The notes beneath the pieces are model-generated. The model saw only the letters and a program-made list of their open reading frames with translations, ran no database searches and was not told the origin of the DNA. Below, piece by piece: positions 8,410 through 41,520 of a DNA stretch of 64,000 nucleotides. Made by a program: the position numbers and the translations under genes. The stretch is from Longimicrobiales bacterium (GTDB lineage: Bacteria; Gemmatimonadota; Gemmatimonadetes; Longimicrobiales; Gaopeijiaceae), in contig CAXXKM010000001.1 in the NCBI GenBank assembly GCA_963664435.2, forward strand, positions 896,001-960,000, written 5' to 3'. Position 1 is the stretch's first letter; each line of letters begins with the position of its first letter.

Positions 8410-11400
8410 CTACCGCAACTTGATTCTTCCGCGGACGCGCACCGAATGTTGCGCCCCACTGAGCCCGCTCTCGCGCCGCGTGCCCTCGAGGCGCAGTCCG
8501 ACGCCCGAGCCCAGATCGTAGCGCACGCCGCTCGAGAAGGCGCGCACGCCGCTCTGGCCGAGGTGGAAGCCGCTGTAGGGCGTCCCCTTCAGGCCGACGA
8601 TGCCGTAGGCCACCTCGCCGTCCACGTTGGGACCCATGCCCGGGCCATGGCCGCCCATCGCGTCGGACACCCCGCGCTCCCACAGCTGGTTCACCCCGCT
8701 CATGTGGTCGCCGTACGAAGGCGCCACCCGGATCGAGAGTCCCTGGTCCCGAGCCGCCGGATCGAACATCAGCGTGCCGCCCAGGCCCCATTCCTCGTAG
8801 CCGTCGTGCCCCGAGATGACGAACCGTCCGCGGCCCTCCGCGGTCAGCCCCAGACTGGAGTTCGTGTAGCGGAGCCCACCGCCGACTTCCGCGCTCGCGC
8901 CGTTCACACCGTCGCCGTTGTCGTAGCGCATCCCGCCTTCGAGCAGGAACGCCATCTCGTGCCCGGTGTCGGAGCGGAAGCCCTGTGCCAACTCGAGAGC
9001 CAGCTTGCCGCGCTGCATATCGAGCGTCACCGCCTCGATCCGCTCGGAGCCGTCGACCTTGACTCGGCCGTACCAGCCCTCGGCCTTGACGCGGATGCCG
9101 CTCAGGCCGCTCGAGAACAACTGGTAGCCGGCACCCCCCGCTCCCGTCAGCATGCTGGCGGGGCTGGTGCGGAGCCCTTCCCGTACGTCGTCCACTTCGA
9201 TGTCGCCCCGGCCGAGCCCGGCCGAACCCCAAACCGAGGTGCCGCGCGCGCCGGAGAACCAGGCCAGGTAGGGATGCAGGCTGGTCATGGTGGCGCCGTA
9301 CGTGCCCTTCACCGCGCTGGCGCCGGTCCTGTCGGTGAAGTCGAAGCTGCCTGAGGAGTACGAGCCCGCGACGCCCGCCAGAATGTCCGGCCCCACGCGC
9401 ACGTCCACGCCGACGTGGCCGCTCACCATGTTGCCCTTCCAGTCGACGCCGCTCGCGCCGGGTTCGCCGAGGTGGTGGTACTCGCCCGCGCCCCAGCTCG
9501 CCAACCGGGTGCCCGTGGCGGACTGCTGCGGCGCATCCGTGGCGCCGAAGGGCATCGTAAAGGAGGTGCCGCCGAAGAGCGCGGCCAGACCGGCCTGGTC
9601 GCGCTGGCCGAGGCCGAGTCCGCCCGCGCCCGGCGCGGACAGGCTCGCGGCCATCGACGAGAGCCCGTGCGTCTCCACGCGCCGCTCCATGCCCATCCCG
9701 CTGGCCACAACGTCGACGCGGCTTGCGATCGCCGAAACCGTGCTCGACGTCATCGCTGCCGCCACGTGCGGCAGGACGCGGGTGTTCAGCCGTCCCGTGC
9801 GCTGCACGGGATCGTCGGTCGCGGCCGAAGCGCTCGCCGACGCCGCGCCGGTGCCGGCCCGGTTGATGGCCGACACCCGGTAGTGGCGCACGCTCCCCGG
9901 CAGCAGGCCGGTGTGCGAGAAAATGCTGCCCCTGGAATCGGTGTTGGTCACCAGATCCGTCCACGCGGCGGCGTTCTCCGAGACCTCGATGCGATAGCCC
10001 GTGATGGGGGCGCCGCCATTGTAGGCGGGCGCGACCCAGGCGAGGTCGATCTGCGTGGGCGTGACCGCGGTGGCGACCAGCCCCGTGGGCGCGTCGGGCA
10101 CGGTCGCGTCGGTGGTGGAGCCCGCAACCCGCGACGCATCGCCCGCGCCGATCCGGTTGATCGCCGAAACGCGGTAGTGGCGCGTCGAGGCCGGCGCGAG
10201 CCCGCTGTGCGTATGGACGGTGGCCGTGGTGCGCGTGTTGGCCACCAGATCCTCCCAACTCCTGCCCCCGTCTGCCGACACCTCGATGCGGTAGCCAGTG
10301 ATGCGCGCGCCCCCGTCGTCGGAGGGCGCCTGCCAGGAAAGGTTGATCTGGGAGGTCCCGGCCGCCTCGGCGCTGAGACGCCGCGGCACCCCCGGCAGGG
10401 TCGCGTCGGTGGTCGCACGCGCCGTATTCGAGTAAGGCCCCGGGCCCGCGAGGTTTCTCGCCGCGACCCGGTAGTGCCGCGTGGTCGCGGGCCGCAGGGT
10501 CACGTCGGAGAACGTCGTCGTCGTCGAGTTCGTGTTGCGGCGGATGATGTTCCAGGTCGCGCCCTCGTCGTCGGAAGCCTCGATACGGTAGCCGATGATC
10601 GAAACACCGCCCGTATAGCGGGGCGCGTTCCACGAGAGGTCGATGCGCGAGGTGCCCACCGCCCGCGCCGTCAGCCCGGTCGGGGCTCCGGCAGTATCGA
10701 CGTGCGTAACAGCCCACACCGGGGGCTCCGAGGTGCGCGGCGACCACTCTCCCTCGCCTTCGCGGTTGATGGCCCTGACCTGGTACTGGTACCGGGTCAC
10801 CGGCTGGAGTCCGGTGTGCCTGAACGTGGTCGTCGTCGTCCCGGTGTTTTGCTCGGCGATGGTCCAGTCGTCGTCGGGCGGCCCGAGCACCCGGATGCCG
10901 TAGCCGGTGATGCGCGCCCCTCCGTCGGCTTCCGGCGCATCCCAGGCGAGGAGGATGCCGCTCGGCCCGGTCGCGCGCGCACGCACGTTCTGCGGCCGCC
11001 CGGGAGGCGCTGCATCGGTGGTGCCTTCGGCCACGTTGGAGGGGGGTCCTGCCCTCGCCGGGCCGTTGATCGCGGACACGCGATAGAACCAGGTGGCGGC
11101 GGGACCAAGATTGCTGTCGGTGTGGATGGTGGCCGTGCTGCCGGTGCTGGCCACGTGGATAACCCAGCCGCCGACTCCGTTGGCGGACCTCTCGATGCGG
11201 TAGCCGGTAATCGGGCTGCCGCCGTCGTCTGCCGGGACCGACCAGGTAAGGAGAAGCTGGTCGGTTCTCGTCGCGCCCGGAACCACCCTGAGTCCTGTGG
11301 GCGCGCTCGGAGCGGAGGTTTCGGTGGTCTCCCGGGCGGTACTCGACCACGCGCCCAGGCCCGCCGCGCTCCTCGCCGCGACGCGGTAGTTGCGGGTGGT

Positions 11401-12717
11401 GTTGGGCCTGAGGCCACCGTGAAAGTAGGTCGTGGTCACGGCGTTGGTGTCGGCCAGGTGCCGCCAGTCGCCGGTTTCGGTGCGCGATTCGATGCGGTAG
11501 CCGGTGATCCGCCCCGAGCCGCTGGAGGAGGGGGCGCGCCAACTCAACCCGATGGCCGAGTCCCCGCGGGCCTGCGCCGTAAACGACCGGGGCGCGTCCG
11601 GCAGGACAGCCTCCGTGGTGGCGAAGGCGACGTTCGAGGGATCTCCCGTCCCGTTGAAATTGATCGCCGACACCCTGTAGTGGCGCGTGACGCCCCCGGT
11701 GAGGCGCGTGTGGCGGTAGACGGTGTCGGGATGCCGGCGCTCCAGAGGGTCCCAGGAATCACCGCCGTCCGCCGACACCTCGATCAGGTATCCGGTAATC
11801 TCGCGCCCGCGATTCGAACTCGGCTCATCCCACTCAAGCTCGATCGCGTCAGGGCCGTCGGCCACCGCAGCGAGGTTGCGCGGCTCTCCGGGAACGCCGG
11901 TGCGCGCCTCCCCGGTGACGTTTCTGACCTGCCTGTCGAAACCGAACGCGAGATTGCCGACCAGGTCCCGAAGCGCGTTGGTGCCGCGGTCGTCGTAGAA
12001 CACCCGAACCGCGTCGACCGTGTCGACGGGGCTGGCCAGAAGCAGGAACACATCGCGGGTGGCCACTTCAACCCCGGACACGGTCTTGACGTTGAACGCG
12101 TTGCCCCTGAGGAAGGATACCTGGAAGTCGCTGGCCGAGGGGACGAAACCTTCATCGAGGTCTTCGTCGAAGGCGATGACGACTTCGTCGCCGTTGACCT
12201 TCGCGTCGGAGACTTCGGGGCCCTTCGTGTCCACGGGAATGTCGAGGGAATTCGACGCAAGATTCCCATCCCCCGAGGCGCTGTCCTGCGCTACGTTCGC
12301 AGGGATGTGGACGAACACGCGACCACTATAGGCCTCCGGCATCCTCAGCGTGACGGAAAATCTTCTGCCGGAGTCGCTGCCCGGTGGAACGGCCTCCGCG
12401 CATCCCGTATTCGGATACGGGCAGGTGATGTTGAGGGCGTCGGCCGTGAAGCCTTTCACGGGCCGTGAGAAAAGGATGGTGATCTGCGCACTGTCCTGTC
12501 TGGGCGGGCTGATCCAGCTCCATGAAATCGAGGTCCTGGGGGGGACGGCCACGTCGCTCGCCGCCGCCGGCGGTTCCGCGGCCGATCGGACCACCTCGCG
12601 CGACCCGCCCGGCGTTGGCTCCTCAGCCCGCGCGCCCGCGGAAGGAAGCAGGAAGGCGCAGACCACTGCGGCGGCCCGGAGGGAACGGGCAGGAAGGCCA
12701 GGCTGGTTCGGAATCAT
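8410..12717 (-). CDS. Fibronectin type III repeat autotransporter/adhesin (Ig-like + SwmB-like repeat + 7 FN3 + barrel)
   Basis: Seven 'PxxPxxL...LxWxxP...GG.ITGYRIE...YRVSAIN..G' repeats and a C-terminal barrel 'GMRYDNGDG'. Start at ATG 12717 with a GGAG RBS and signal peptide. Confidence 0.88.
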   Translation of the reverse strand: MIPNQPGLPARSLRAAAVVCAFLLPSAGARAEEPTPGGSREVVRSAAEPPAAASDVAVPPRTSISWSWISPPRQDSAQITILFSRPVKGFTADALNITCPYPNTGCAEAVPPGSDSGRRFSVTLRMPEAYSGRVFVHIPANVAQDSASGDGNLASNSLDIPVDTKGPEVSDAKVNGDEVVIAFDEDLDEGFVPSASDFQVSFLRGNAFNVKTVSGVEVATRDVFLLLASPVDTVDAVRVFYDDRGTNALRDLVGNLAFGFDRQVRNVTGEARTGVPGEPRNLAAVADGPDAIELEWDEPSSNRGREITGYLIEVSADGGDSWDPLERRHPDTVYRHTRLTGGVTRHYRVSAINFNGTGDPSNVAFATTEAVLPDAPRSFTAQARGDSAIGLSWRAPSSSGSGRITGYRIESRTETGDWRHLADTNAVTTTYFHGGLRPNTTRNYRVAARSAAGLGAWSSTARETTETSAPSAPTGLRVVPGATRTDQLLLTWSVPADDGGSPITGYRIERSANGVGGWVIHVASTGSTATIHTDSNLGPAATWFYRVSAINGPARAGPPSNVAEGTTDAAPPGRPQNVRARATGPSGILLAWDAPEADGGARITGYGIRVLGPPDDDWTIAEQNTGTTTTTFRHTGLQPVTRYQYQVRAINREGEGEWSPRTSEPPVWAVTHVDTAGAPTGLTARAVGTSRIDLSWNAPRYTGGVSIIGYRIEASDDEGATWNIIRRNTNSTTTTFSDVTLRPATTRHYRVAARNLAGPGPYSNTARATTDATLPGVPRRLSAEAAGTSQINLSWQAPSDDGGARITGYRIEVSADGGRSWEDLVANTRTTATVHTHSGLAPASTRHYRVSAINRIGAGDASRVAGSTTDATVPDAPTGLVATAVTPTQIDLAWVAPAYNGGAPITGYRIEVSENAAAWTDLVTNTDSRGSIFSHTGLLPGSVRHYRVSAINRAGTGAASASASAATDDPVQRTGRLNTRVLPHVAAAMTSSTVSAIASRVDVVASGMGMERRVETHGLSSMAASLSAPGAGGLGLGQRDQAGLAALFGGTSFTMPFGATDAPQQSATGTRLASWGAGEYHHLGEPGASGVDWKGNMVSGHVGVDVRVGPDILAGVAGSYSSGSFDFTDRTGASAVKGTYGATMTSLHPYLAWFSGARGTSVWGSAGLGRGDIEVDDVREGLRTSPASMLTGAGGAGYQLFSSGLSGIRVKAEGWYGRVKVDGSERIEAVTLDMQRGKLALELAQGFRSDTGHEMAFLLEGGMRYDNGDGVNGASAEVGGGLRYTNSSLGLTAEGRGRFVISGHDGYEEWGLGGTLMFDPAARDQGLSIRVAPSYGDHMSGVNQLWERGVSDAMGGHGPGMGPNVDGEVAYGIVGLKGTPYSGFHLGQSGVRAFSSGVRYDLGSGVGLRLEGTRRESGLSGAQHSVRVRGRIKLR

Positions 12718-12746: not shown

Positions 12747-12780
12747 TCACCCCCCGCCCGGAATCCCGAACGGGGGGTGA
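12747..12780 (-). terminator. GC-rich hairpin with a 10-bp stem (terminator or mRNA-stabilising element)
   Basis: TCACCCCCCG (12747-12756) pairs with CGGGGGGTGA (12771-12780). There is no strong U-tract. Confidence 0.5.
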
Positions 12781-12844: not shown

Positions 12845-15800
12845 TTAGCTCGATGGCTTGGCATCGACGGATACCACGGTACCCTGGCGCTCCTCGGTCC
12901 AGGTGTCGGTGCTGCCGTCCTCGCCCTCGTCAACACCCTCCTGCCGCGCGTCGACGCGTACCTTGATGGCCTTGTTGAGGTCGGCTTCAGTGATCGGAAC
13001 CGGTACCCCACCGAGCGTGCTCCAGGTTGCGGTGAAGCCGTCAGCGACCGGGAGGGTCCACGCCCTGGTTTCGCTGCCGAGAGTGGCAGGTGTTCCACCA
13101 GCGGCGACGAGCCATAAGGTGTTGCCTGCGGACGCGGCGTCGACCTCTACCAGAATCCGGAACTGCGAGTTGCCATTCGTCACAGCGTTCCAGCTGACCT
13201 CGATGTCGTCGTCGTCCCGTACGGCGGCCACACCGCTGGCCGACGGATCGATTTCGTCAACCGTGACCGCAGCCGAGGTGTCGGCGTACGGGACAGCCGG
13301 GGTCGAAGGCGTGATCTCTTCAGCGTTGGCAATGACCCGAACCATGAACTCGCCATCGCTCGGATTCGGGATCGTGAAGCTGCCCGGCACGTCCTCGAGT
13401 GGAGTACCAGCCTGCACCTGGGTTGGCGAGGTGACATCCGTCCAGGTATCACCATCATCCACGGAGGTCTGGATCGTGTACGTGGCGTCGTTATACCCAT
13501 CGGGCGTGTGCTCGGCGTTGGCCGTGTACATGACCGAGATGGTGGTAGCCCAGGCCCTCGTGGACTCATCGACATCGTCGGTGGCGTCGTCGTCGTCAAC
13601 GCGCATCCGCGCCGCTCTGACGTTCCGGGCGCCAGCAGTCATCGCCCTGATCGTACCGAAGTCATAAGCCTGACCCGGAGCGACGCTCACCCTCTGGTTG
13701 TCGTTCGGGTAGCCGAAGACGTGGTTCGCCGCCGACGCTTCGATGTCATAGGTGCCGAACGGTACGCTGAGCACGAAGGTGCCTCTGGCAGTGCTGGTGC
13801 TGGAGACATCGTCCCCGGCTGCGCCCGGAACCACGTTCGTGGCCGTGACCGTAACGCCACCCATTGCGGTGTTGTCCGGACCGCGCACCCTGCCCGAAAT
13901 CGTCGCGTGCAGGAAGCCGGTGAAGTTGATACCCGAGACCGCCGATCCGGCGTGGGCCGGCACGGACAGCTCCGCAGGCGCGAAGCTCATGCCGTCCTTC
14001 GACACGGTCACCGCAGCACTCTCGCCCAGGTCTTTGGCGGTGATGGTCGCGGTGTAGGTGCCGTCGGCGCCCGTCACGAGCTTGCCTGCGTTCGCACCGG
14101 TCGTGGCTGCGTTGGTCGGGGCCGCGCCGTCCACCATGATCTCGGCACCGGCGATCGGCGCGCCGCTGCCGGATGCGGTGACCGTACCGCTGATCGAGGC
14201 GGTCGCGCCTACGCCCGAAAGATCGACGTCTGCGTTGATACGGTCGTTCGCAGCGAATGGCACGATCTCCCGCGTCTTCCCGCTTCCTTCATGGGCGGTC
14301 TCAACGAAGACGCTGTTCGTGTGCGTCACGTTGCCAATCTTGCGGCTCGCCACGTTGGGCACGTACTCCGCGATGTAGCGGCCGTGCGCGTCGGTCATCG
14401 CCTCAACCCCGTTCACGTTCACGGTCACGTCGGGAACGGGGAATTCCTCCGCGTCCCTCACGTAGCCGTAGACGGTGGTCGTCGCCGGCGTGATGTCGAG
14501 TTCAACATCCCCTGCGAGCGGGCTGAAGGCGCTGCCGACCATGGCGGTGGCGCCCTTCGGACCCATCCTCGCCCGCCAGCCGTCCGTCACGCTGGCTTCG
14601 TAGACGCCGGCAGCGATGTTGTTGAAGGCGAACTGGTGGGTCTCGTCGAGCACTTCATTGCCCTTGGAGGTCTCACCCGGCCCCCGGACCGGCTTCTCCG
14701 TGGTGGTGGCGGACTCCTCGTCACCCGCGAGATTCTTGCCCTCGACGGGGCTCAGGCTGACCGAAATGCCGGGTACGAACGTGGGTCCACCATCATCCTC
14801 CGGACCCATCTTGAAGCCGTCATCGTTGGCGCTCTCGCTGCTCCTGAGGACCTGGTTCTTCCAGATCAGGCCCGTCACCGAGTGCGTGCTCACGTAGGCG
14901 AACGACGAGCAATCGCCGTGGTCCTGCGGCTTGGTGGCCTGTAGCGGGCATAGCGAAACCGTGTGGCTGTAGCCGCCCTGCGCTCCGAAGTGGCCGCCAG
15001 TGATTCCGTTGGTTTCCGTGCCGGCGTAGGCGGCCAGCTCATCGGCATGCCCGCCCTCATCGAGGAGCATGATGCTCTGGTCGCTGTTGTCGGCCTTCGA
15101 CGCCTGGGCAATCACGTTCATGTCGGCCGGCACGTTGTTGAAGACCCATGCACCGCCGTCACCATTGTTGCGCGGCTCGCTGATGCTGTCCGCAGCCGTG
15201 AACGGGCGCGAGCGCCCGCTGTCGTCGATATAGCGGACCTCGACGTCGACCTTGCGATCGGCACCCTTTCCGTCCATCTCGTCGCCGCCGATGATGTTTC
15301 CGGTGTAGCCTTCGACCTGGTCGAGCTCGTGGTGGACGTAGACCTTGAGCGTCTGGGTCGTGAACGCCGCCTCGAGCATGCCGGCGTCCTGCGTGCCGGC
15401 CAGCATGAGGCCGGTGTGCGTGTACTCGACCGGCTGAGCCGAGTAGTTCTCGCCCCCGTCCAGCGCGTTGTCCTGGTCGTCGGCGAGCGCGACGGTGAAG
15501 GTCGCCGGCAGGTCGTCGGCTCCGACGGTAGTCATGAACGCCGCGTTGCCCATGTCGTCCAGCATCTCCGGCGCGCCGTCGACCGCTTCGTCGCCGGACA
15601 TGACGCTGATCGCCCAGCCGGCGAGCGCCTCGCCGCCACCGTACTCGGTGGTGACAGTGGCGCCGCTGACGGATGCGTCGACGTTCAGGTTGACGATGTC
15701 GTTGGAGTTTCCGGCCGCGGTCGCAAACATCTGCGGATCCCAGGACACTGCGGTCCTGGCGTCCTCACCGTAATCGTAGCCTTCGGCCGATACGCCCGCT

Positions 15801-17503
15801 GTCACCATGTTCCCGTCGGTGCGTGCGCGCGCGACCTTGATCGTGACGGAGCCGTCGTCGTCGGTGGTGCCGCTGCCGACCATGCCGTCGCCCGTCCCGT
15901 AGAGCGTGACTGTGGCGCCGGGAACCGCGTCGCCCATGTCGTCGCCGTTCCTCAGCGAGACCGTGAAGTTGACCGTTGTGTGCGTGATGTCGAACGGAAT
16001 GGCCTGCGAAGCCGGCTCGCCGACACCGAGGTCGACGGAGTAGCCTTCGCCCGGTCCGCCGTACGCGAGGTCGGCGGCCGCGAGCGCCGCGGCGACATCG
16101 GCGTTGATGAGCACGACCAGCTGGTAGGGGCCGGCGCGCAGACCCGTGAAGGAGAACGCACCGGTCTCGTCCGTGGCGCCAAGCCGCTGCTCGTTGACGC
16201 CCGGGCCCACCAGCGCCACCGGAATGCCGGCGTGCGCCACCGAATGCTCGCCCTCGTCGTACATGTCGTTCTTGGTCGCCTCGTCGATGAACACCATGCC
16301 CGAGACGCTCGCGGTGCGCGCGTGCGCGCCCTCGAAATTCACGATCGCCGACTCGTCGTCGCCCAGCGTCACGTCCGTGCTCATCGACTCGAACACGTAG
16401 GCGTCGCTCTCGACCGCGATCGAGACCGTGTAGTCGCCGGCCGCCAGGCCCGCGAAGGCGTACTGGCCGCCCGCGTCGGTCATCGTCGTGCGGCTCTCGT
16501 CGCCGCCCGCCAGCGTCACCGCGATGTCGCCGAGTCCCATGCCCTCGACGCTCACTCCGCCCGCGATGCCGGAGGTGCGGAGCAGGACGCCGGTGAACGA
16601 CACCGTGCCGGTCTCGTCGAGATCCACGCTCACGTCCTGCGACGTGGCCGCGAACTCGTAGTCGCGCGGGTCGAAGTCCGCGATCTCGACCCTGTAGTCG
16701 CCGGGGCGAAGTTCCTCGAACCGGAACATGCCATCGCCGTCGGTCATCATCGTGTAGCTCTCGTCGGCCGGACCGCCGCTCAGGGTGACCGTAATGCCGG
16801 CAAGCCCTTCGCCTTCGATGATCACCTGCCCCTCGACCGCGGAGGTGCGGATGAAGTGGCCCGTGAAGTCGGCCTGGCCGACATCGCCCACGTCGACCTG
16901 GATCTCGAGGCTCACCGTCTCGAAGGACACGTCCTCGGGGAAGTCGCTGATGGTGACCGTGTAGGTGCCCGCGCGGAGCCCGGTGAAGGCGAAGCCGCCG
17001 CTCATGTCGGTCTCCATGGTCTCGCCCATGGCGTGCTCGCCGCCGAGCGTGACCGTCACGCCAGCCAGCGTCTCGGGCTGGCCGTCGCCGCCGCTCATCA
17101 TGGCGTCGGCCGCAACCACGTTGCCGACCACCGCGGAGGAGCGGATGTACTCGCCGGCGAAGTTGAGTTGGACGTTCTGACCATCGGTCGCGATGGTCGC
17201 GGACTGCGTCACCTGGGCGAACGTCGCATCCTCGGGGAAGCCGCTGATGGTGACCGTGTAGGTCCCGGCTTCCACGCCCGAGAAGGCGAAGCTGCCACCC
17301 GACCCGGTCGTCGTGGTCGCACCCGACGACAGGGTGGCGGCGATGCCGCTGGCGGCCGTGCCTTCAATCGTCACCGTCCCGGAGATGGTTCCCACGGGAG
17401 TGGGCGGCGGGGGCGGCTCCACGGGCGGCGGAGTGCCCTCGTCGCAGGCGGTGAAGGTCAGGGCCATCAGCGTTGCTGCGGCGAAGAGTTTGAGTCGGTT
17501 CAT
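12845..17503 (-). CDS. Large acidic surface lipoprotein with carboxypeptidase-regulatory-like/Cna-B beta-sandwich repeats
   Basis: Lipobox 'LTFTAC' and Pro-rich linker. Multiple 'G.I.VTL.G....T.TD..G.F.F.GL.AG.Y.V' repeats. AGGAGG RBS; 1552 aa. Confidence 0.85.
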   Translation of the reverse strand: MNRLKLFAAATLMALTFTACDEGTPPPVEPPPPPTPVGTISGTVTIEGTAASGIAATLSSGATTTTGSGGSFAFSGVEAGTYTVTISGFPEDATFAQVTQSATIATDGQNVQLNFAGEYIRSSAVVGNVVAADAMMSGGDGQPETLAGVTVTLGGEHAMGETMETDMSGGFAFTGLRAGTYTVTISDFPEDVSFETVSLEIQVDVGDVGQADFTGHFIRTSAVEGQVIIEGEGLAGITVTLSGGPADESYTMMTDGDGMFRFEELRPGDYRVEIADFDPRDYEFAATSQDVSVDLDETGTVSFTGVLLRTSGIAGGVSVEGMGLGDIAVTLAGGDESRTTMTDAGGQYAFAGLAAGDYTVSIAVESDAYVFESMSTDVTLGDDESAIVNFEGAHARTASVSGMVFIDEATKNDMYDEGEHSVAHAGIPVALVGPGVNEQRLGATDETGAFSFTGLRAGPYQLVVLINADVAAALAAADLAYGGPGEGYSVDLGVGEPASQAIPFDITHTTVNFTVSLRNGDDMGDAVPGATVTLYGTGDGMVGSGTTDDDGSVTIKVARARTDGNMVTAGVSAEGYDYGEDARTAVSWDPQMFATAAGNSNDIVNLNVDASVSGATVTTEYGGGEALAGWAISVMSGDEAVDGAPEMLDDMGNAAFMTTVGADDLPATFTVALADDQDNALDGGENYSAQPVEYTHTGLMLAGTQDAGMLEAAFTTQTLKVYVHHELDQVEGYTGNIIGGDEMDGKGADRKVDVEVRYIDDSGRSRPFTAADSISEPRNNGDGGAWVFNNVPADMNVIAQASKADNSDQSIMLLDEGGHADELAAYAGTETNGITGGHFGAQGGYSHTVSLCPLQATKPQDHGDCSSFAYVSTHSVTGLIWKNQVLRSSESANDDGFKMGPEDDGGPTFVPGISVSLSPVEGKNLAGDEESATTTEKPVRGPGETSKGNEVLDETHQFAFNNIAAGVYEASVTDGWRARMGPKGATAMVGSAFSPLAGDVELDITPATTTVYGYVRDAEEFPVPDVTVNVNGVEAMTDAHGRYIAEYVPNVASRKIGNVTHTNSVFVETAHEGSGKTREIVPFAANDRINADVDLSGVGATASISGTVTASGSGAPIAGAEIMVDGAAPTNAATTGANAGKLVTGADGTYTATITAKDLGESAAVTVSKDGMSFAPAELSVPAHAGSAVSGINFTGFLHATISGRVRGPDNTAMGGVTVTATNVVPGAAGDDVSSTSTARGTFVLSVPFGTYDIEASAANHVFGYPNDNQRVSVAPGQAYDFGTIRAMTAGARNVRAARMRVDDDDATDDVDESTRAWATTISVMYTANAEHTPDGYNDATYTIQTSVDDGDTWTDVTSPTQVQAGTPLEDVPGSFTIPNPSDGEFMVRVIANAEEITPSTPAVPYADTSAAVTVDEIDPSASGVAAVRDDDDIEVSWNAVTNGNSQFRILVEVDAASAGNTLWLVAAGGTPATLGSETRAWTLPVADGFTATWSTLGGVPVPITEADLNKAIKVRVDARQEGVDEGEDGSTDTWTEERQGTVVSVDAKPSS

Positions 17504-17573
17504 GGAACCTCCTGAGTGGTGGAAAGGAAAACCGGCCTGGAGGGGCTGGAGAGAGTCGCGTGCCTTTGGATAG

Positions 17574-17589
17574 GCAAAGGCGGTGCCAA
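17574..17589 (-). promoter_or_regulatory. Sigma-54 (-24/-12) promoter for the surface lipoprotein gene
   Basis: The minus strand reads TTGGCACCGCCTTTGC, an exact TGGCAC-N5-TTGC match about 70 nt upstream of ATG 17503. Confidence 0.8.
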
Positions 17590-17852
17590 TTTCAGAACCT
17601 TCATAATTGGCAACCGGTTACGCACTATCGCCCCGCTCTGTGGCATCCGGCGGACCCCACGGATTCTCGGATTATCGGCGACGGCCACTGTTTTCTGAAT
17701 GCGACTAAAACGATAAGATTGTTGGCGATATCGCCCGTTTATCAGAAATGTGTCTCAAATATCACTCCGATCGCCCCTGTCTCGTCGTATACGACGTTAT
17801 CGATATCCGCAATGCCAGAAGCGACTGTAGGACGATCCGTCACGGCCCTAAA

Positions 17853-17879
17853 TTGACAAGATCGCTGATCGTACATACT
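17853..17879 (+). promoter_or_regulatory. Possible sigma-70 promoter for the AraC-like/dTnpB operon
   Basis: Perfect TTGACA at 17853-17858. The best -10 (CATACT) has a non-canonical 15-nt spacer. Confidence 0.35.
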
Positions 17880-17962
17880 GGTATATACGAAGACTCACCA
17901 TGGGGGCAAAGGAATGGGGCGCCACGGTTGGCAGCGCGCCTCTTCACGGCGGGATCGCAGGG

Positions 17963-18826
17963 ATGGAGTCGAAACAACTGGTCTGCATGCTGTATTGCAG
18001 CGACGGCGAACTGAGGGACCGACTGGAGCGCGTGCTCGCCGGCGTCGCAGTTCAGCGAGTGCGTTCGAGAGAGGCACTCCTGGCGCCGCCCGCGATCGTT
18101 TGCGCGACGGTATACGGAACCACCACCTGCTCCGATGACGAAGTCGAGTGGTTGCGGTCGGCCTTCAGGCCTCTGAGCCCGCCATGCGTCGTGGTGGCTG
18201 ACCTCTCCGTAGACTGCCTGCGACGACTGGACCCACTCCGCTCCTGCAGGCTGAAGGTCGTGTGGACCGCCGAGGCCGAGGACCGCCTCGGTGAAGTCCT
18301 CGGGGAGTTCGGCAGGGTGAGTTGGGGTCCGATGTGGCGTCTCGGCCTGGGGCTGGTGTCGGAGCCTTCCCTGAAGCCTTTCGTAAAGGAGACGATCCGC
18401 CGGGCGTGCGGCCTGCGCAACGATCCCGCCGGCACTCCGTTCGTCCCCGAGAAGTCCGTCGGAAAGCTGGCGCGCGAGGTCGGCGTCGCCACGTCGACGC
18501 TTCGGCTTTGCTGGAGGGAGGAAGTTCCGCTCCGGTGCAGCCTCAAGGAATTCCTGAGCTGGGCGGTCACCCTCTGGGGCACGCGCGCGCGTGCACTTGA
18601 GGAATGGACTCCCCTCGCCAAACGGCTGGGACTCCAGCGCCGCTCGCTCGAGAGAAACTTCCTTCGGACGGCCGGATGTACCCTCGCCGAGGCGGCCGAG
18701 GACTCGGAGCGGGTGGTCGGGCGATTCAATGAGTGGGTCGATTCCGTGTGGGAGCCCCACTCCGGCGACGGGTCCGGGGCGTATGATCGGGTTCCGACGC
18801 AGGCGCCCCGCGAGGAGATGCCTTGA
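17963..18826 (+). CDS. Divergent AraC-like double-HTH regulator with a degenerate receiver-like N-terminus
   Basis: HTH1 'SVGKLAREVGVATSTLRLCW' and HTH2 'WTPLAKRLGLQRRSLERNFLRTAGCT' with an AraC-like F-x-R-x-x-G-x-T ending. Start 17963 or 17900. Confidence 0.65.
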   Translation: MESKQLVCMLYCSDGELRDRLERVLAGVAVQRVRSREALLAPPAIVCATVYGTTTCSDDEVEWLRSAFRPLSPPCVVVADLSVDCLRRLDPLRSCRLKVVWTAEAEDRLGEVLGEFGRVSWGPMWRLGLGLVSEPSLKPFVKETIRRACGLRNDPAGTPFVPEKSVGKLAREVGVATSTLRLCWREEVPLRCSLKEFLSWAVTLWGTRARALEEWTPLAKRLGLQRRSLERNFLRTAGCTLAEAAEDSERVVGRFNEWVDSVWEPHSGDGSGAYDRVPTQAPREEMP

Positions 18827-19869
18827 CGGTGGCCGGATCGACCGCCCGGCGTTACGTCGGGTGGCGGTGCAGGCTCTACCCGAGCCCCGCGCAGGATGAA
18901 GCGCTGCTCCGGTGCAGGAACGGCCTGCGCGAACTCGCCAACGCCCTGCTCGCCACCTCCCAGCTCAGGTACGGGGAGACCGGACGGCGCCTGTCCCTGA
19001 TCGAGATGCGCGCCTTCGCGCGGGACTGGAAGCGGCAGCCGAAGCACCGGGAATTCCCCGCCAGCGCCAGCTACCGCGTCGCCGCCGATCTCGACCGGAC
19101 CTTCCGCACCTGGTTCAGCAGGCCGGGAAAACGCGGGCGCAGAGGATTTCCCCGGATCAAGAGCATCGGACGGGAGCCCGGCATCTACTTCAGCAACCAG
19201 GGGATCCGCTTCGACGGCAGCCGGGTGTGGCTGCCCAGGTTCGGGTCCGTGCGCTGGAAGGGCGGAAAGCTGCCCTCGGGGAGGCTGCCGGGTCCGTCCG
19301 GACGCAAGACCCTCGGTCTGCTCTCGGGGCGGGCCTGGCTCGATGCGGGAAACCGGTGGATGCTGTCGTGCCTGTTCGAGTGCGCGCCGCTCACCCCCGT
19401 CGAACCGAGAACGGAGAAGGCGGCAGTCCGTCAGAACGGCCGCGAAATCAGTGTGTCGGTGGACGGGGAGGCCCTCCACGTGATCCGCGAGAGCAGGACG
19501 CTCAGGAACGCGAGGCGCCGCCTGGCAAGGCTCGAGCGGCGGCTGGAGCGATGCGAATTCGGGTCAGAAGGCCGAAAGCGCACCCTTGCCCTCATGCGCA
19601 ACCAGGCACGCAGGGTTCGGAACCACCAGGCGGATCTGCAGCACAAGGCCACGACCGGCGTCGTGCATGAGGCCCGCGAGATCGAAGTGGAAGGCGCGAG
19701 CAGCGAACTGCTGCGTCAGCTCGAATACAAGGCGGAGTGGCACCGCCGCCGACTGAAGGTACGGCGAGGCCCGCCGGAACCGGGGACTGGCAAGCCCCGA
19801 CGCGCGCGGAGACCGGGGAGCCGGTCGCAGAAACGCGAATCGCGGACGCGAAGGCCGAAAGCTCTGTAG
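18823..19869 (+). CDS. tnpB: Nuclease-dead, C-terminally truncated TnpB (IS200/IS605 OrfB) derivative, TldR-like
   Basis: TnpB hallmarks: 'RLYPSPAQ', 'GFPRIKS', 'VWLPRFGSVRW', 'RWMLS', 'RLARLERRL', 'DLQHKATT' and 'LLRQLEYKAEW'. RuvC-I 'GIDLG' is replaced by 'AVRQNG'; no CxxC Zn finger or 'DRDxNAA'. TTG start with GAGGAG RBS overlaps the upstream TGA. Confidence 0.85.
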   Translation: MTVAGSTARRYVGWRCRLYPSPAQDEALLRCRNGLRELANALLATSQLRYGETGRRLSLIEMRAFARDWKRQPKHREFPASASYRVAADLDRTFRTWFSRPGKRGRRGFPRIKSIGREPGIYFSNQGIRFDGSRVWLPRFGSVRWKGGKLPSGRLPGPSGRKTLGLLSGRAWLDAGNRWMLSCLFECAPLTPVEPRTEKAAVRQNGREISVSVDGEALHVIRESRTLRNARRRLARLERRLERCEFGSEGRKRTLALMRNQARRVRNHQADLQHKATTGVVHEAREIEVEGASSELLRQLEYKAEWHRRRLKVRRGPPEPGTGKPRRARRPGSRSQKRESRTRRPKAL

Positions 19870-19890
19870 CCGTCTGCGAAGGCCGGAACG
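19760..19890 (+). ncRNA. Putative TnpB omega-RNA (reRNA) scaffold overlapping the 3' end of the dTnpB ORF; guide expected just downstream
   Basis: Paired elements: CGGCG/CGCCG (19762-76), CGGGG/CCCCG (19781-99), ACG-CGCG-C-GGAGA...GAAA-CGCG-AA (19800-39) enclosing GACCGG/CCGGTC, and terminal stem TCGCGGACG/CGTCTGCGA (19840-79). The layout matches IS605-type omega-RNAs as I recall them. Boundaries are approximate. Confidence 0.65.
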
Positions 19891-20312
19891 AATCAGGGAG
19901 CAGGACCTCGCCAGGTACGGGACAGCAGGTGATATCTGATCCGTGAGCGATAATATCGGCAACTATGATGATATCATGGAGACAGAGAGAGTCGAGGCAA
20001 CACCGGCCCCCACGCAAGAGGTAGCCGATTGCACTGCGATCTATCAGTTATATTTCAAGGTAGTATGCTGATATTGGGATGATAACGCGGATGCATGCAC
20101 CCTGAAGCTCCATCCGCAGTCCCCAGGCCGCTTTGTACGCTCAATCCACACTTCCACCGCGAACCCTGCCGAGACTAGGGGAGGTGCCCTTGAATCCCGG
20201 TCGACAATTTATGACGTTTGGATGATAGTTCGGGTGCATTTGCGATGTTTTGGCGATCACTGGTTGTGCCCGAGGACGCGACGCCGGGCGAGGATCCGGG
20301 GAGGACGGGCCG

Positions 20313-22676
20313 GTGACTAAGCACCCGGACGCGTTGAGAATAGAGGCGCTGCAGGAGCGCGTCTCGAGGCTGTGCGGCGCAATCCTGCGCATCAACGCGA
20401 GCCTGGATCTTGAGACGGTCCTGCAGGAAGTCGTAGACAGCGCCCGGGCCCTGACCGGCGCCCGCTATGGCCTGATTGCGACCGTCGACGACGCGGGCGA
20501 ACCCGGGCCGTACCTCGTCTCCGGCCTGACGCCGGAGCAGCTGCGGCAGCTTCAGGAGTGGGAGGACGGGCTCCGGGTCTTCGAGCACTTCCGGGACCTT
20601 CCGGGTGCGGTGCGGATCGGAGACCTGTCGACCTGGCTCCGTTCGCTCGGTTTCTCGCCGGTCGCGCTTCCATCGAAGACGCTGCAGGGCACGCCGATCC
20701 GTCATCGGGGCATCTACGCCGGAAGTTTCTTTATCGGCGGAAAGGACGGGGAAGGCGAGTTCACCCGCGAGGACGAAGAGGTTCTCGTCCTGCTGGCGTC
20801 GCAGGCAGCGACGGCGATCGCCAATGCCCGCAACTTCCGGGACGAACAGCGGGCGCGGGCGAAGGTGGAGACCCTCGTCGACACGTCGCCGGTCGGCGTG
20901 GTGGTCCTGGACGCCAGAACCGGAAGTCTGGTGTCGATCAACCGGGAGGCGAAGCGGATCGTCCGAGGCCTGCGGATGCCGGACGGGTCAACGATGGAGC
21001 TTCTGGAATTGGTTACGTGCCGGCGCGGCGACGGGCGCGAGTTCGCCTTGAAGGAATACCCGCTGGCGCGCGAGCTGAGCAGCGCCGAGACGCTGCGTGC
21101 CGAGGAGATCGAACTTTCGGTCCCCGATGGACGCAGCGTTAAGACGCTGATAAACGTGACGCCGATCCATGAGCCCGACGGTCGCGTCGAGTCCGTTGTG
21201 GTCACCATGCAGGATATGGCGCCGTTTGAGGAGCTCGAGCGAATGCGGACCGAGTTCCTCGGGATCGTGAGTCACGAGTTGCGCGCGCCGCTTGCCGCCA
21301 TCAAGGGCTCGGCGGCCACAGTGCTCGCCGGCTCCGGGCGCGTCGCTCGTGCCGAGATGCTGCAGTTCTTCCGCATCATCGACGAGCACGCCGACAACAT
21401 GAGCGTTTTGATGGGCGACCTGCTCGATGCGGGACGCATCGCGACGGGCACATTGTCCATCTCGCCCGAGCCCTCGGATGTCGGGGCGCTGATCGACCAG
21501 GCGCGGACCACCTTCCTGAACGCCGGCGGCCGACACAGCGTGCGGGTCGACCTGCCTCCGGACCTGCCGAAGGTGATGGTCGACCGGCAGCGCATCGTAC
21601 AGGTCCTCAACAACCTCCTCTCCAACGCGGCGAGATACTCCCGGACGTCGTCGCCCATAGAGGTCAACGCGCGGCTCGATGGCGTCCATGTCTCGATCAC
21701 GGTATCCGACCATGGCAGAGGCATCGCGCCCGAGCGGCTGGCGCACTTGTTCGCCAAGCGGGCCGGCGCGGGCGAGGGCACGCGCGGTCTGGCGACGGGC
21801 CTGGGCCTCGCCATCTGCAAGGGACTGGTAGAGGCGCACGGGGGCCGCATCCGGGCTCGGAGCGAAGGAGAGGGTCGAGGGGCGCGATTCACGTTCACCG
21901 TCCCTACCGCCGAAGAGGTCGGCGGCGACATCGCGGCTTCGGATTCCTCCTCGCAGGAACGCTCCCGTCCAGGTCCGGACGCGACGCGCATCCTGGTGGT
22001 GGACGACGACCCGCGGACGCTGCTCTACATCCGCGATACGCTCACCACGGCGGGGTATACCGTACTCGAGACGGGCGAGCCTCCGGAACTGGCGCGGGTC
22101 ATTCGCGCGGAGAAGCCCCACCTGGTCCTGCTCGACCTGATGTTGCCCGGGACCGACGGCATCAAGCTGATGCAACAGGTTCCCGACCTGGCCGACATGC
22201 CGGTCATCTTCATCTCCGCCTACGGGCGGGACGAGACGATCGCAAAGGCCCTCGACGCCGGGGCCGCCGATTACATCGTCAAGCCGTTTTCGGCGACGGA
22301 GTTGACGGCGAGGATCCGGGCGGCGCTGCGCAGGCACGCCGAGCCCGCATCCTTCATGCTGAGTGGGCTGGCCATCGACTACGATCGCCGCCAGGTGACG
22401 CTCGGCGGCCAGCCGCTGGAGCTCACCGCCACCGAATACGAGCTGCTGCGGGTGCTCTCGGCCAACGCCGGGCGCGTGCTGACGTACCGCGCGCTGCTGC
22501 GCAAGGCCTGGGACACCCGCTACCGGAGCTCCGTCGACCCGAAGCTGGTGCATGCCGTTGTGAGGAGGCTCCGCCACAAACTGGGCGAGGACGGCGCTCG
22601 GCCGACCTACATTCTCAACGAGCGAAGGGTAGGCTACCGGATGCCCGCGCCGGACGACCGCGCGAGCGAGCCGTGA
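20313..22676 (+). CDS. Soluble hybrid sensor kinase/response regulator (GAF-PAS-HisKA-HATPase-REC-OmpR winged helix)
   Basis: H-box 'SHELRAPL', N-box 'NNLLSNAARYS', G2 'GLGLAICK', REC 'VVDDD...LLDLMLPG...KPF' and wHTH 'LTATEYELL...RVGY'. GTG start with a GGAGG RBS. Confidence 0.9.
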   Translation: MTKHPDALRIEALQERVSRLCGAILRINASLDLETVLQEVVDSARALTGARYGLIATVDDAGEPGPYLVSGLTPEQLRQLQEWEDGLRVFEHFRDLPGAVRIGDLSTWLRSLGFSPVALPSKTLQGTPIRHRGIYAGSFFIGGKDGEGEFTREDEEVLVLLASQAATAIANARNFRDEQRARAKVETLVDTSPVGVVVLDARTGSLVSINREAKRIVRGLRMPDGSTMELLELVTCRRGDGREFALKEYPLARELSSAETLRAEEIELSVPDGRSVKTLINVTPIHEPDGRVESVVVTMQDMAPFEELERMRTEFLGIVSHELRAPLAAIKGSAATVLAGSGRVARAEMLQFFRIIDEHADNMSVLMGDLLDAGRIATGTLSISPEPSDVGALIDQARTTFLNAGGRHSVRVDLPPDLPKVMVDRQRIVQVLNNLLSNAARYSRTSSPIEVNARLDGVHVSITVSDHGRGIAPERLAHLFAKRAGAGEGTRGLATGLGLAICKGLVEAHGGRIRARSEGEGRGARFTFTVPTAEEVGGDIAASDSSSQERSRPGPDATRILVVDDDPRTLLYIRDTLTTAGYTVLETGEPPELARVIRAEKPHLVLLDLMLPGTDGIKLMQQVPDLADMPVIFISAYGRDETIAKALDAGAADYIVKPFSATELTARIRAALRRHAEPASFMLSGLAIDYDRRQVTLGGQPLELTATEYELLRVLSANAGRVLTYRALLRKAWDTRYRSSVDPKLVHAVVRRLRHKLGEDGARPTYILNERRVGYRMPAPDDRASEP

Positions 22677-40470: not shown

Positions 40471-40503
40471 GTAGTATCATTCCGACATGTTGAGTGATAC
40501 TAC
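40471..40503. promoter_or_regulatory. Inverted-repeat operator over the -10 box and start codon of the antitoxin
   Basis: GTAGTATCA-N15-TGATACTAC. It contains TATCAT (40475-80) and ATG 40487. Confidence 0.65.
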
Positions 40504-41110
40504 TTTCGCATCCGGCGACTCCGGCGCATCCCCCGAAGCCCCCGAATCCCGCGAATCCCGCGCTCCTTCGGGTCGTTTCGTCCTCCGAATCGATCCCGGA
40601 CTGCATGGCACCCTGCGGGAGGGCGCGCGTGCGGCGGGTGTCTCCCTTAATGAATACTGTGCGCGCAAGCTGGCATCGCCCGGCGTCTGGCTGGACGAGG
40701 AAGCCGCCGCAATCGTCGAGCGCGCCGCATCCATCCTCGGTGAATCGCTGGTGGGCGTCATGGCCTTCGGCTCGTGGGTGCGCGGCGAACACGATGCGAC
40801 CTCGGATTTCGACGTCCTCCTGATCGCGGCGGATGATGTGCCGGTTGCGCGGCAGCTGTACCGGCGCTGGGACGATGCCCCCGGGCTCTCCTGGCAAGGC
40901 CTCGAGGTGCAGCCCCATTTCGTCCATCTCCTGCCCGAAGGGGAGGTGCCTTCCGGTCTGTGGGGGGAGGTCGCCACGGATGGCGTGATCCTGCTTGAGC
41001 GCGGCTTCGAGGTGTCCCGGCGACTCGCCGAAGTCCGAAGGCGGATCGCCGACGGGGACATCGTCCGCCGCTTCGCTCAGGGGCAGCCCTACTGGGTCCG
41101 GTCGGGCTGA
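40487..41110 (+). CDS. HicB-like RHH domain fused to a minimal nucleotidyltransferase (MNT antitoxin)
   Basis: 'SGRFVLRIDPGLH...A...GVSLNEYC' (HicB-like RHH) and 'FGSWVRGEHDATSDFDVL' (GS-x10-DxD, MNT). Confidence 0.85.
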   Translation: MLSDTTFASGDSGASPEAPESRESRAPSGRFVLRIDPGLHGTLREGARAAGVSLNEYCARKLASPGVWLDEEAAAIVERAASILGESLVGVMAFGSWVRGEHDATSDFDVLLIAADDVPVARQLYRRWDDAPGLSWQGLEVQPHFVHLLPEGEVPSGLWGEVATDGVILLERGFEVSRRLAEVRRRIADGDIVRRFAQGQPYWVRSG

Positions 41111-41520
41111 TGCGAAACCCGGGGCTGGCCCTCGACTATCTCCGGCGGGCGAAGATCCGGCTTGCGGCCCTGGAGGTGCTGTTCGAGGGGGAGAGCTGGG
41201 CGGACGTGGTCCGAGAGTCGCAGGAGATCGTCGAGCTCGCCCTGAAGGGGCTGCTGCGCTTCTGCGGCATCGACCCGCCCCGGATGCACGACGTCTCGGA
41301 GGTATTGCTCGCGGAGCGGGAGCGCCTGCCGGCCAGGATCGAGCGCGACGTCGAATCGCTGGCGGAATGGTCCCGGCACCTGCGGCGTGACCGGGAGCTC
41401 GCGTTCTACGGGGCCGAGGATCTGACTCCGTCCGGGTTCTACTCGCGGGAGGACGCGGTCCATGCTCGCGCCAGCGCGCGCGACACGGTCGAGCTGGTGT
41501 ATCCGACCGTGATGGGGTAG
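41110..41520 (+). CDS. HEPN-domain protein (toxin partner of MNT)
   Basis: 'SQEIVELALKGLL...PPRMHDV...RELAFYG' (R-x4-Y type). TGATG coupling to the MNT gene. Confidence 0.88.
   Translation: MRNPGLALDYLRRAKIRLAALEVLFEGESWADVVRESQEIVELALKGLLRFCGIDPPRMHDVSEVLLAERERLPARIERDVESLAEWSRHLRRDRELAFYGAEDLTPSGFYSREDAVHARASARDTVELVYPTVMG

Follow-up and report, generated by a model that had tools for sequence, protein, structure and literature searches.

The window analysed here, a stretch of 64,000 nucleotides from a Longimicrobiales genome, carries a surface-protein operon, a regulator-like gene, the gene of a nuclease-dead, truncated TnpB and an omega-RNA with its guide. The first gene of the surface operon (12845-17503, reverse strand) codes for a giant protein of 1552 amino acids with CarboxypepD_reg/SdrD_B repeats and a lipoprotein-like N-terminus, called type A in the following. 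The second gene (8410-12717, reverse strand) was identified by domain scan as coding for a fibronectin-III repeat protein, a putative autotransporter judging by its C-terminus, which is like that of a neighbour with a weak autotransporter match. The type-A gene is preceded by a -24/-12 promoter motif of the sigma54 type (17574-17588, reverse strand), which is conserved in 11 of 11 aligned loci and fits the published consensus (PMC3224663); rpoN is present in the genome. Upstream of this promoter, at 17611-17700, an IHF-like site and two conserved motifs are candidate enhancer sites, and a conserved inverted repeat, also found in the loci L006 and L016, lies between the two surface-operon genes (12747-12780). 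The labels lipoprotein signal, IHF-like and, below, SusC-like were read from the sequence, and the IHF consensus was checked in the literature.

Divergent from the type-A surface gene, a regulator-like protein of 287 amino acids is encoded at 17963-18826 (forward strand; longest ORF from 17900). Its receiver-like N-terminal fold and AraC-like double helix-turn-helix were assigned from weak matches only. Neither sequence comparison nor Foldseek revealed a significant solved relative (best E-value 2.2e-3, response regulators), and no sigma-factor family in Pfam or NCBIfam was matched, so that the ECF sigma factor neighbour of the dCas12f-sigmaE systems is not found here. The stop codon of the regulator gene overlaps the start of the dead TnpB gene (18823-19869, forward strand). 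A complex prediction for the two proteins resulted in a score of 0.21 (mark 0.32), which weighs neither way on binding.

The neighbourhood was compared in 20 closely related loci from GTDB genomes. The regulator gene is located upstream of the dead TnpB gene in 19 of these, and a divergent giant surface-repeat gene upstream in 12; several of the other loci are at a contig edge or have the surface operon downstream. Such a conserved association with non-transposase genes, together with the lack of a Y1 TnpA, is characteristic of TldRs; no Y1_Tnp match was detected in the genome, which is 96% complete (Y1 class only). Located 3′ of the RNA is a gene for a hybrid GAF-PAS histidine kinase/response regulator (20250-22676, forward strand), with a homolog downstream in 11 of the 20 loci. 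Adjacent HicB-like and HEPN-domain genes at 40487-41520 possibly form a toxin-antitoxin module. No tRNA was found in the window, and no prophage or integrase gene among the 30 window proteins scanned.

The truncated TnpB protein and its family

The protein of 348 amino acids was assigned by ORF call, profile and structure model. Residues 16-290 match the NCBIfam model guided_TnpB with 75 bits, which is below the cut-off of 100. A phmmer search matched ISDra2 TnpB with an E-value of 2.5e-13 at 22-24% identity, and the structure model (mean pLDDT 77.8) superimposes on PDB 8h1j with a TM-score of 0.70. A sequence-only reading of the locus had described a TnpB nuclease inactivated at several sites and had called for an alignment to ISDra2 TnpB among others; no intact D-E-D triad was found by it. 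The RuvC-I remnant (19417-19470, forward strand) reads KAAVRQNGREISVSVDGE, with K199 at 19417, and lacks the catalytic Asp, as was concluded from its alignment to AAGVDVG/VGVDVG of intact relatives and to ISDra2 TnpB. The second stretch of lesions is located at 19681-19740 (forward strand). The RuvC-II Glu is retained as E290 in IEVEG, which starts at 19681 and is followed by a 19-residue in-frame gap relative to the intact relatives, corresponding to the lid, and then by ELLRQLEYKAEW. Both observations agree with the earlier reading, as does the retention of WED/REC and the bridge helix seen in the alignment; the YKAEW helix is retained as well. Y302 and W306 are invariant and equal Y309 and W313 of ISDra2 TnpB, which stack on the first guide-target pair (PMC10097598).

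The CxxC-CxxC zinc finger and the RDxNAA motif of RuvC-III are absent from the 348-residue ORF, and the RNA start TACGGCG is indeed located at 19760, inside the ORF. The earlier description of the deletions as in-frame holds for the lid and fails for the zinc finger and RuvC-III: the ancestral frame across the RNA start is YGEARRN, as in the relatives P0062 (YGEARRN) and P0064 (YGEERR), and the reading frame of the ORF is displaced from it by one base. Residues 313-348 are therefore regarded as a read-through of RNA-coding DNA, a by-product; in the model, pLDDT is below 50 from residue 319 on. The protein is thus TnpB-derived with a degenerate RuvC active site, as TldRs are, and has neither the intact D-E-D triad nor the CxxC-CxxC zinc finger of an active IS200/IS605 TnpB. 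The half that binds TAM and seed is retained, and the cutting half has been deleted. From the loss of two of three catalytic motifs it is predicted not to cleave DNA in cells. An 11-residue insertion in WED, at about residues 156-165, is a family trait that is absent from intact relatives.

A protein search, in which the best 8000 candidates were scored, resulted in 60 matches, of which 58 are near homologs with 52-98% identity. By pattern search, none of these 58 carries the RuvC-I Asp motif, the zinc finger or RDxNA. The lid-deleted pattern was found in 49 of the 58, the other nine having been assessed by pattern search only. Since the lesions are common to the whole family, chance is excluded as the source of the inactivation. 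The 20 close GTDB loci belong to MAGs titled Ca. Palauibacter, Longimicrobiales, Gemmatimonadetes or Gammaproteobacteria, and among sequence sets the best holder of the omega-RNA is a sponge metagenome. Among 251 genomes sampled from the order, more than 50% identity over most of the protein was reached by matches in at least 10 of the 12 genomes of the own genus and in at least 3 of a second genus; a stricter first look preceded, and these figures are a floor. In the own genome, eight queries detected four dead copies and no further or intact TnpB.

For the analysis of selection, 12 intact gap-free genes were compared in 66 non-independent pairs, and frameshifted or gapped loci were left out. 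The dN/dS ratio is 0.29 for residues 10-195 and 0.22 for residues 196-311 at a dS of about 0.4. In the RNA-coding tail (residues 313-348), dS drops to as low as 0.06 and dN/dS is 0.78. The ratios support purifying selection on the dead TnpB and not decay, and together with the family-wide lesions and the low dS across the tail they bear out the earlier suggestion of selection. Some members of the family are frameshifted or partial.

In a tree of 27 proteins, type A is joined with a second class, type C (support 99/96). A third class, type D, belongs to a larger, weakly supported group with A and C, adjoining relatives with an intact triad. The type-D dead TnpBs (L202:4685-5850, L204:4887-6020) have kept the lid and the zinc finger and have lost the Asp residues of RuvC-I and RuvC-III; they are likely intermediates, and a stepwise loss from the intact triad via type D to types A and C would fit these data. 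Another group of dead TnpBs from the same bacterial family (P0066, P0071, L097-L099, L103, L110) has a Cys-bearing insertion and no zinc finger; P0071 carries in addition a long N-terminal part.

The omega-RNA and its guide

Between loci, hardly any variation is seen in the DNA from about 19759 to 19898. Based on this conservation and on pseudoknot pairing, the omega-RNA scaffold was assigned to 19759-19888 (forward strand), its 5′ end being approximate. It contains a 5′ hairpin (19762-19776), the loop of which (19768-19771) can pair with 19881-19884 as a pseudoknot. In the pairing check of 20 RNA rows, in which helices 1, 2 and 4 are valid, the four pairs of the pseudoknot helix are paired in 20 of 20 rows (3 G-U), and array-type RNAs carry changes on both sides (loop GGCA with TGCC). 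Covariation by RNAalifold is near zero because the RNA hardly varies; the single-sequence fold was not better than that of shuffled sequences (z -0.71), and no relevant Rfam family was found at 17000-21000. Within the genus, the omega-RNA was detected in 16 of 19 genomes.

An alignment of 12 rows (one uninformative) revealed that the RNAs of types A, C and D and of the arrays have GCCGGAA in common and diverge directly after it. For this reason, and due to the pseudoknot helix that holds just upstream, the guide start was set to 19889. The guide (19889-19898, forward strand), about 8-10 nt long with the sequence CGAATCAGGG, was delimited by the alignment of RNA types, conservation and its target match. 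Among 30 distinct type-A RNAs, its positions 1-8 never vary, conservation at positions 9-10 is 87-90%, and little is conserved past position 11; some of these loci were fetched by queries containing the guide, and all 20 loci fetched by protein agree on it. At the sequence level, an adjacent, conserved guide RNA with a short guide is thus present, as in TldRs. A scaffold end at GAATCA with a G-rich guide following it was also considered. This gave no consistent target within the loci or the genome and was rejected once the boundary was moved 7 nt upstream, by which the ATA-GGGG candidate sites near the regulator promoter were dropped as well.

In one sponge metatranscriptome run, a share of 0.06 of the stretch is covered, with no cover in the bins over the regulator gene. 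A contig piece of 122 nt in that run lies over 19778-19898 with two differences; it tells neither strand nor transcript end nor level, could stem from DNA, and stops at the point at which paralogs diverge. Since active TnpB processes its own RNA (PMC10278001), the omega-RNA of the dead TnpB would have to mature in another way. Tandem repeats occur near some RNA ends: in G076 (L092/L218), short repeats of scaffold end and guide follow the RNA end, and in L017, L019 and L020 partial repeats of the 5′ hairpin are located downstream of the guide. These resemble incipient arrays.

Guide matches in surface-gene leaders

The own genome (G000) contains several paralogous surface operons, two of type A on contig C1, a duplicated type B on C2 and type C on C3. 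The type-C (16 kb, 99.9% identity) and type-B (14.3 kb, 99.5%) operons are near-identical inverted duplicates, one type-C duplicate being without promoter and 5′ end; this may be due to misassembly or to a switch that works by inversion. Surface-gene paralogs are also numerous in the single-contig genomes G001 and G046 of the same genus (31 and 9 matches, with repeats counted), in which neither a dead TnpB nor the omega-RNA was found.

A comparison of the 5′ regions of surface paralogs revealed that the type-B leader contains the reverse complement of the last 13 bases of the type-A RNA. Of 20000 random genomic 40-mers, 0.2% share as many as 13 identical nt with the four surface-gene 5′ regions. 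In the type-B leader the match reads TTGAA followed by CGAATCAGGG (C2:12967-12981, duplicate copy near C2:54992) and is located 21-35 nt upstream of the start codon. In total, 15 matches to the guide 10-mer were found in the genome, of which two are guides and two are flanked by TGAA. Both of the latter lie in type-B leaders, within one duplication of 99.5% identity, and about 0.03 TGAA-flanked matches are expected by chance (13 sites at a TGAA frequency of 0.0023). The candidate TAM and the guide boundary were derived after the fact from the same data they explain. The GAA of the flank equals the last three scaffold bases and could reflect microhomology with the scaffold end, which the T cannot.

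Across the genus, the corresponding 12-mer was found in 14 of 19 genomes, and all 15 sites are at the same position of the type-B leader. A search for the type-B promoter that omitted the site returned these 14 genomes and no others; the site is thus intact in every genome in which type B was found. Of the site's 15 columns, 14 are invariant, compared with 44 of 83 for the remaining leader; the leader is conserved in general and stems from related, non-independent genomes. Three genomes without the omega-RNA (one 67% complete, two single-contig) are also without site and type-B promoter; G157 and G255 have the omega-RNA and no detected type-B promoter in fragmented assemblies of 60 and 140 contigs. 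Outside the genus, the 12-mer occurs somewhere in 28 of 146 genomes of the family. Its presence alone is therefore weak evidence and its position carries the weight; due to this real background, the zero count of a reversed-pattern control understates chance. A match of at least 10 nt to the type-B site is present in 24 of the 30 distinct type-A RNAs, and one case of covariation was seen, in which position 10 has changed alike in one G031 guide and its type-B site. None of 23 dead-TnpB loci contains a self-site. The leader of the type-A surface gene has no site for its own guide; it resembles type B at the place of the site, but flank and seed differ. As in TldRs, a guide-matching site flanked by a TAM, here assigned post hoc, is thus found in a host-gene leader.

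The TGAA flank is common to the targets of types A, C and D and of the matching array guide. The guide of type C, the dead TnpB of which is located on contig C3, reads CCGACTCAAT in five genomes. Its sole TGAA-flanked match of 8-9 nt in the own genome is the start codon of the type-A surface gene in the window, ATGAA followed by CCGACTCAA (17490-17503, reverse strand). Covariation of type-C-like guides is mixed: G067 and G079 agree in part, and the fragmented assembly of G076 contains no matching start site. Tandem orphan omega-RNAs were observed upstream of type-C surface genes (G000:C3:1146550-1146925, reverse strand; also L204, L165, L166). One of the two array guides of the own genome has a 9-nt match after ATGAA at the start codon of a SusC-like gene; for the other, no TGAA-flanked match was found in the genome. 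Array guides begin with TCGCTT in four genomes, a seed that also fits the starts of another surface-gene subtype (ATGAATCGCTTC in G031, G252 and G253). The type-D guide sequence matches within the same SusC-like gene in two genomes, four of the six type-D pattern matches being unrelated sites. A SusC/RagA-like TonB-dependent transporter gene (G000:C1:890227-893433, reverse strand; also L226, L227), 2.6 kb left of the window, is matched by two guide types, at its start codon and inside its coding region. The genes adjoining the type-C, type-D or array RNAs start with a different sequence.

These matches point to the dead TnpB as a domesticated, TldR-like RNA-guided DNA-binding regulator of rival surface-coat operons, which we consider the likely reading, as far as sequence data allow; a role of this kind was implied by the sequence-only reading, and it is supported by the site that matches the guide, flanked by TGAA, in a rival paralog's leader. 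The orientation of the type-B site counts against it. The TAM is on the ATG side and the TAM-distal end faces the promoter, whereas targets in 5′UTRs are repressed efficiently only if the TAM-proximal end points towards the promoter (Wiegand et al., bioRxiv 10.1101/2023.11.30.569447); it is the orientation that is poor at blocking elongation in published TldR assays. The site is located at about +53 from the putative transcription start and would therefore be too far downstream for promoter occlusion. Partial damping, an action at the mRNA level or help from another factor is conceivable.

Pairing of the RNA 3′ end, within the RNP or as RNA alone, with the type-B mRNA leader shortly before the ribosome-binding site, lowering translation or stability while the protein only protects the RNA, would explain such an orientation, and the type-A RNA is indeed antisense to the type-B mRNA over 13 nt, 21-35 nt before the ATG. 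The guide of type C is sense to its target mRNA and can therefore act only on DNA; as the array guide is sense as well and both share the TGAA flank, DNA targeting would explain all classes at once. Furthermore, the flank's T, which is unable to pair with the RNA, is retained by all 14 type-B leaders, and the DNA-contacting WED/REC half is under purifying selection. All three points argue against mRNA pairing, and we regard this post-transcriptional explanation as unlikely.

The coding regions behind the target sites hold a second point against regulation of rival operons by the dead TnpB. Both type-B copies of the own genome have a TGA at codon 3 (C2:13002, C2:54970) in an otherwise open long frame, and 5 of the 14 type-B genes have such a stop, distributed over three positions of a small tree; beyond it, the frames are open where the assembly shows them. 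The underlying C-to-T change affects the second position of the target of the type-C guide and recurs in L128, L130, L132, L135, L018/L175 and L011, with some type-A genes among those affected. As explanations for the stop, an escape allele relying on read-through or restart, a scar of R-loop deamination or a CpG hotspot come into question.

The stop also fits a relic, in which the dead TnpB is an inert passenger of a duplicated or transferred surface-gene cassette and the guide match dates from an old insertion beside a B-like gene: guides of IS200/IS605 elements derive from flanking DNA (Xiao et al., bioRxiv 10.64898/2026.09.22.753285), and the frameshifted or partial family members are in line with this. 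A dN/dS of 0.22-0.29 at a dS of about 0.4 does not suit an inert gene, nor does the invariance of guide positions 1-8 next to scrambled DNA after position 11, nor do several different guides that each match surface-gene 5′ ends with one flank. A relic is thus considered very unlikely.

A putative RNA-guided regulator of surface coats

Under the favoured reading of RNA-guided regulation, the dead TnpB would be co-expressed with the upstream helix-turn-helix regulator and would form an RNP with the omega-RNA. This RNP would bind the type-B leader via the TAM and an R-loop of 8-10 bp and lower transcription from the sigma54-type promoter, by which an active type-A locus would damp the rival type-B coat. 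Type C would likewise be directed at the start codons of A and B, with the type-C genes differing at the site. Extended to all classes, this would give an RNA-programmed, ranked exclusion network over the surface-coat operons, in which each accessory operon would carry a dead TnpB or an orphan omega-RNA array of its own directed at its rivals and would have changed at its own site to escape, type C silencing both A and B, and A in turn silencing B; we put this network forward tentatively, as a possibility that falls short of being probable.

Binding to the type-B leader DNA might instead tune or activate the sigma54-type promoter or recruit a partner such as the helix-turn-helix protein. The regulator gene overlapping the dead TnpB start and found upstream in 19 of 20 GTDB loci would suit a partner, as would the family-wide WED insertion that intact relatives lack; dead Cas12f proteins drive transcription with sigmaE (PMC13472631), and the type-B site is unfavourable for a roadblock. 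Types C and D share the insertion with no adjacent regulator gene seen in the fetched regions, two regulator homologs in the own genome have no dead TnpB, and the escape of the operon in cis would fit repression of a rival better than activation. Tuning or recruitment therefore appears improbable to us.

Several features are shared with characterised TldRs. The fliC_P-TldR of enterobacterial prophages is also a dead TnpB whose gene adjoins an alternative surface-gene copy, with a guide against the 5′ region of the resident copy and escape of the cis copy via changes in TAM and seed (bioRxiv 10.1101/2023.11.30.569447). It differs in its flank, GTTAT instead of TGAA, and in its host; here, the genes are giant surface lipoproteins with sigma54-type promoters, the site lies within the leader and its TAM points away from the promoter, the 30 window proteins include no prophage or integrase, and several dead-TnpB classes target one another's operons. 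The oppF-TldR of Enterococcus has a similarly short guide of about 9 nt, has lost the first RuvC acidic residue, is truncated at the C-terminus and conserves the Tyr/Trp pair; its target may also be downstream of the start site and is in a paralog family (Xiao et al., bioRxiv 10.64898/2026.09.22.753285). Its lid is present but disordered and dispensable for repression, and its C-terminal domain is needed for solubility, whereas lid, zinc finger and RuvC-III are deleted outright here, and the 11-residue WED insertion and the coupling to a helix-turn-helix regulator are added. By analogy to these published data, the anatomy of the dead TnpB, with a short guide, a truncated RuvC and no lid, is plausible.

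ISDra2 TnpB (PDB 8h1j, 8bf8) has the same fold, domain order and overlapping omega-RNA with pseudoknot but differs from type A in being the active nuclease of a transposon, in which D-E-D and a TNB zinc finger are present and the heteroduplex is about 12 bp long (PMC10097598). In the RpoE-associated inactivated TnpB/dCas12f systems, RuvC is likewise inactivated, RuvC-III is lost, and regulators and omega-RNA arrays are nearby; dCas12f is derived from Cas12f and activates with an ECF sigma factor, whereas the partner here is no sigma factor (PMC10691335, PMC13472631). The nearest relatives of type A are TnpBs of the IS605 type, unlike those of dCas12f.

In summary, the four sequence-level hallmarks of a TldR are found at the locus and an association with fliC_P, oppF or csrA is not; the clade is set apart from the fliC_P-, oppF- and csrA-TldR clades by its gene neighbours, a helix-turn-helix regulator and surface-repeat genes. 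It was not found in the searched literature, which included few subscription papers, and the supplements of Xiao et al. or the journal version of Wiegand et al. could list it. The main text and the five supplementary files of the Wiegand preprint, the long ones perhaps incomplete, contain no match to Gemmatimonad. What the present analysis adds is the guide of type A with its target site, the putative TAM and the predicted targeting across dead-TnpB classes.

For this clade, guide, TAM and target are all predicted. With it, the domestication of TnpB would reach the sigma54-type surface-protein genes of sponge-associated Gemmatimonadota and would go beyond a single guide with a single target, to several dead-TnpB classes aimed at each other's operons. 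The intact triad, type D with point-mutated RuvC-I/III and a kept zinc finger, and types A and C with deleted lid and zinc finger represent a natural deletion series, which would mark the minimal size of an RNA-guided DNA binder and bears on compact CRISPRi-like tools. For this sponge-associated bacterium, the dead TnpB probably helps in the choice of the surface coat; the exclusion network, if true, would amount to a switch for dominance or antigenic variation that is based on a binder of about 310 residues, stripped of lid, zinc finger and RuvC-III.
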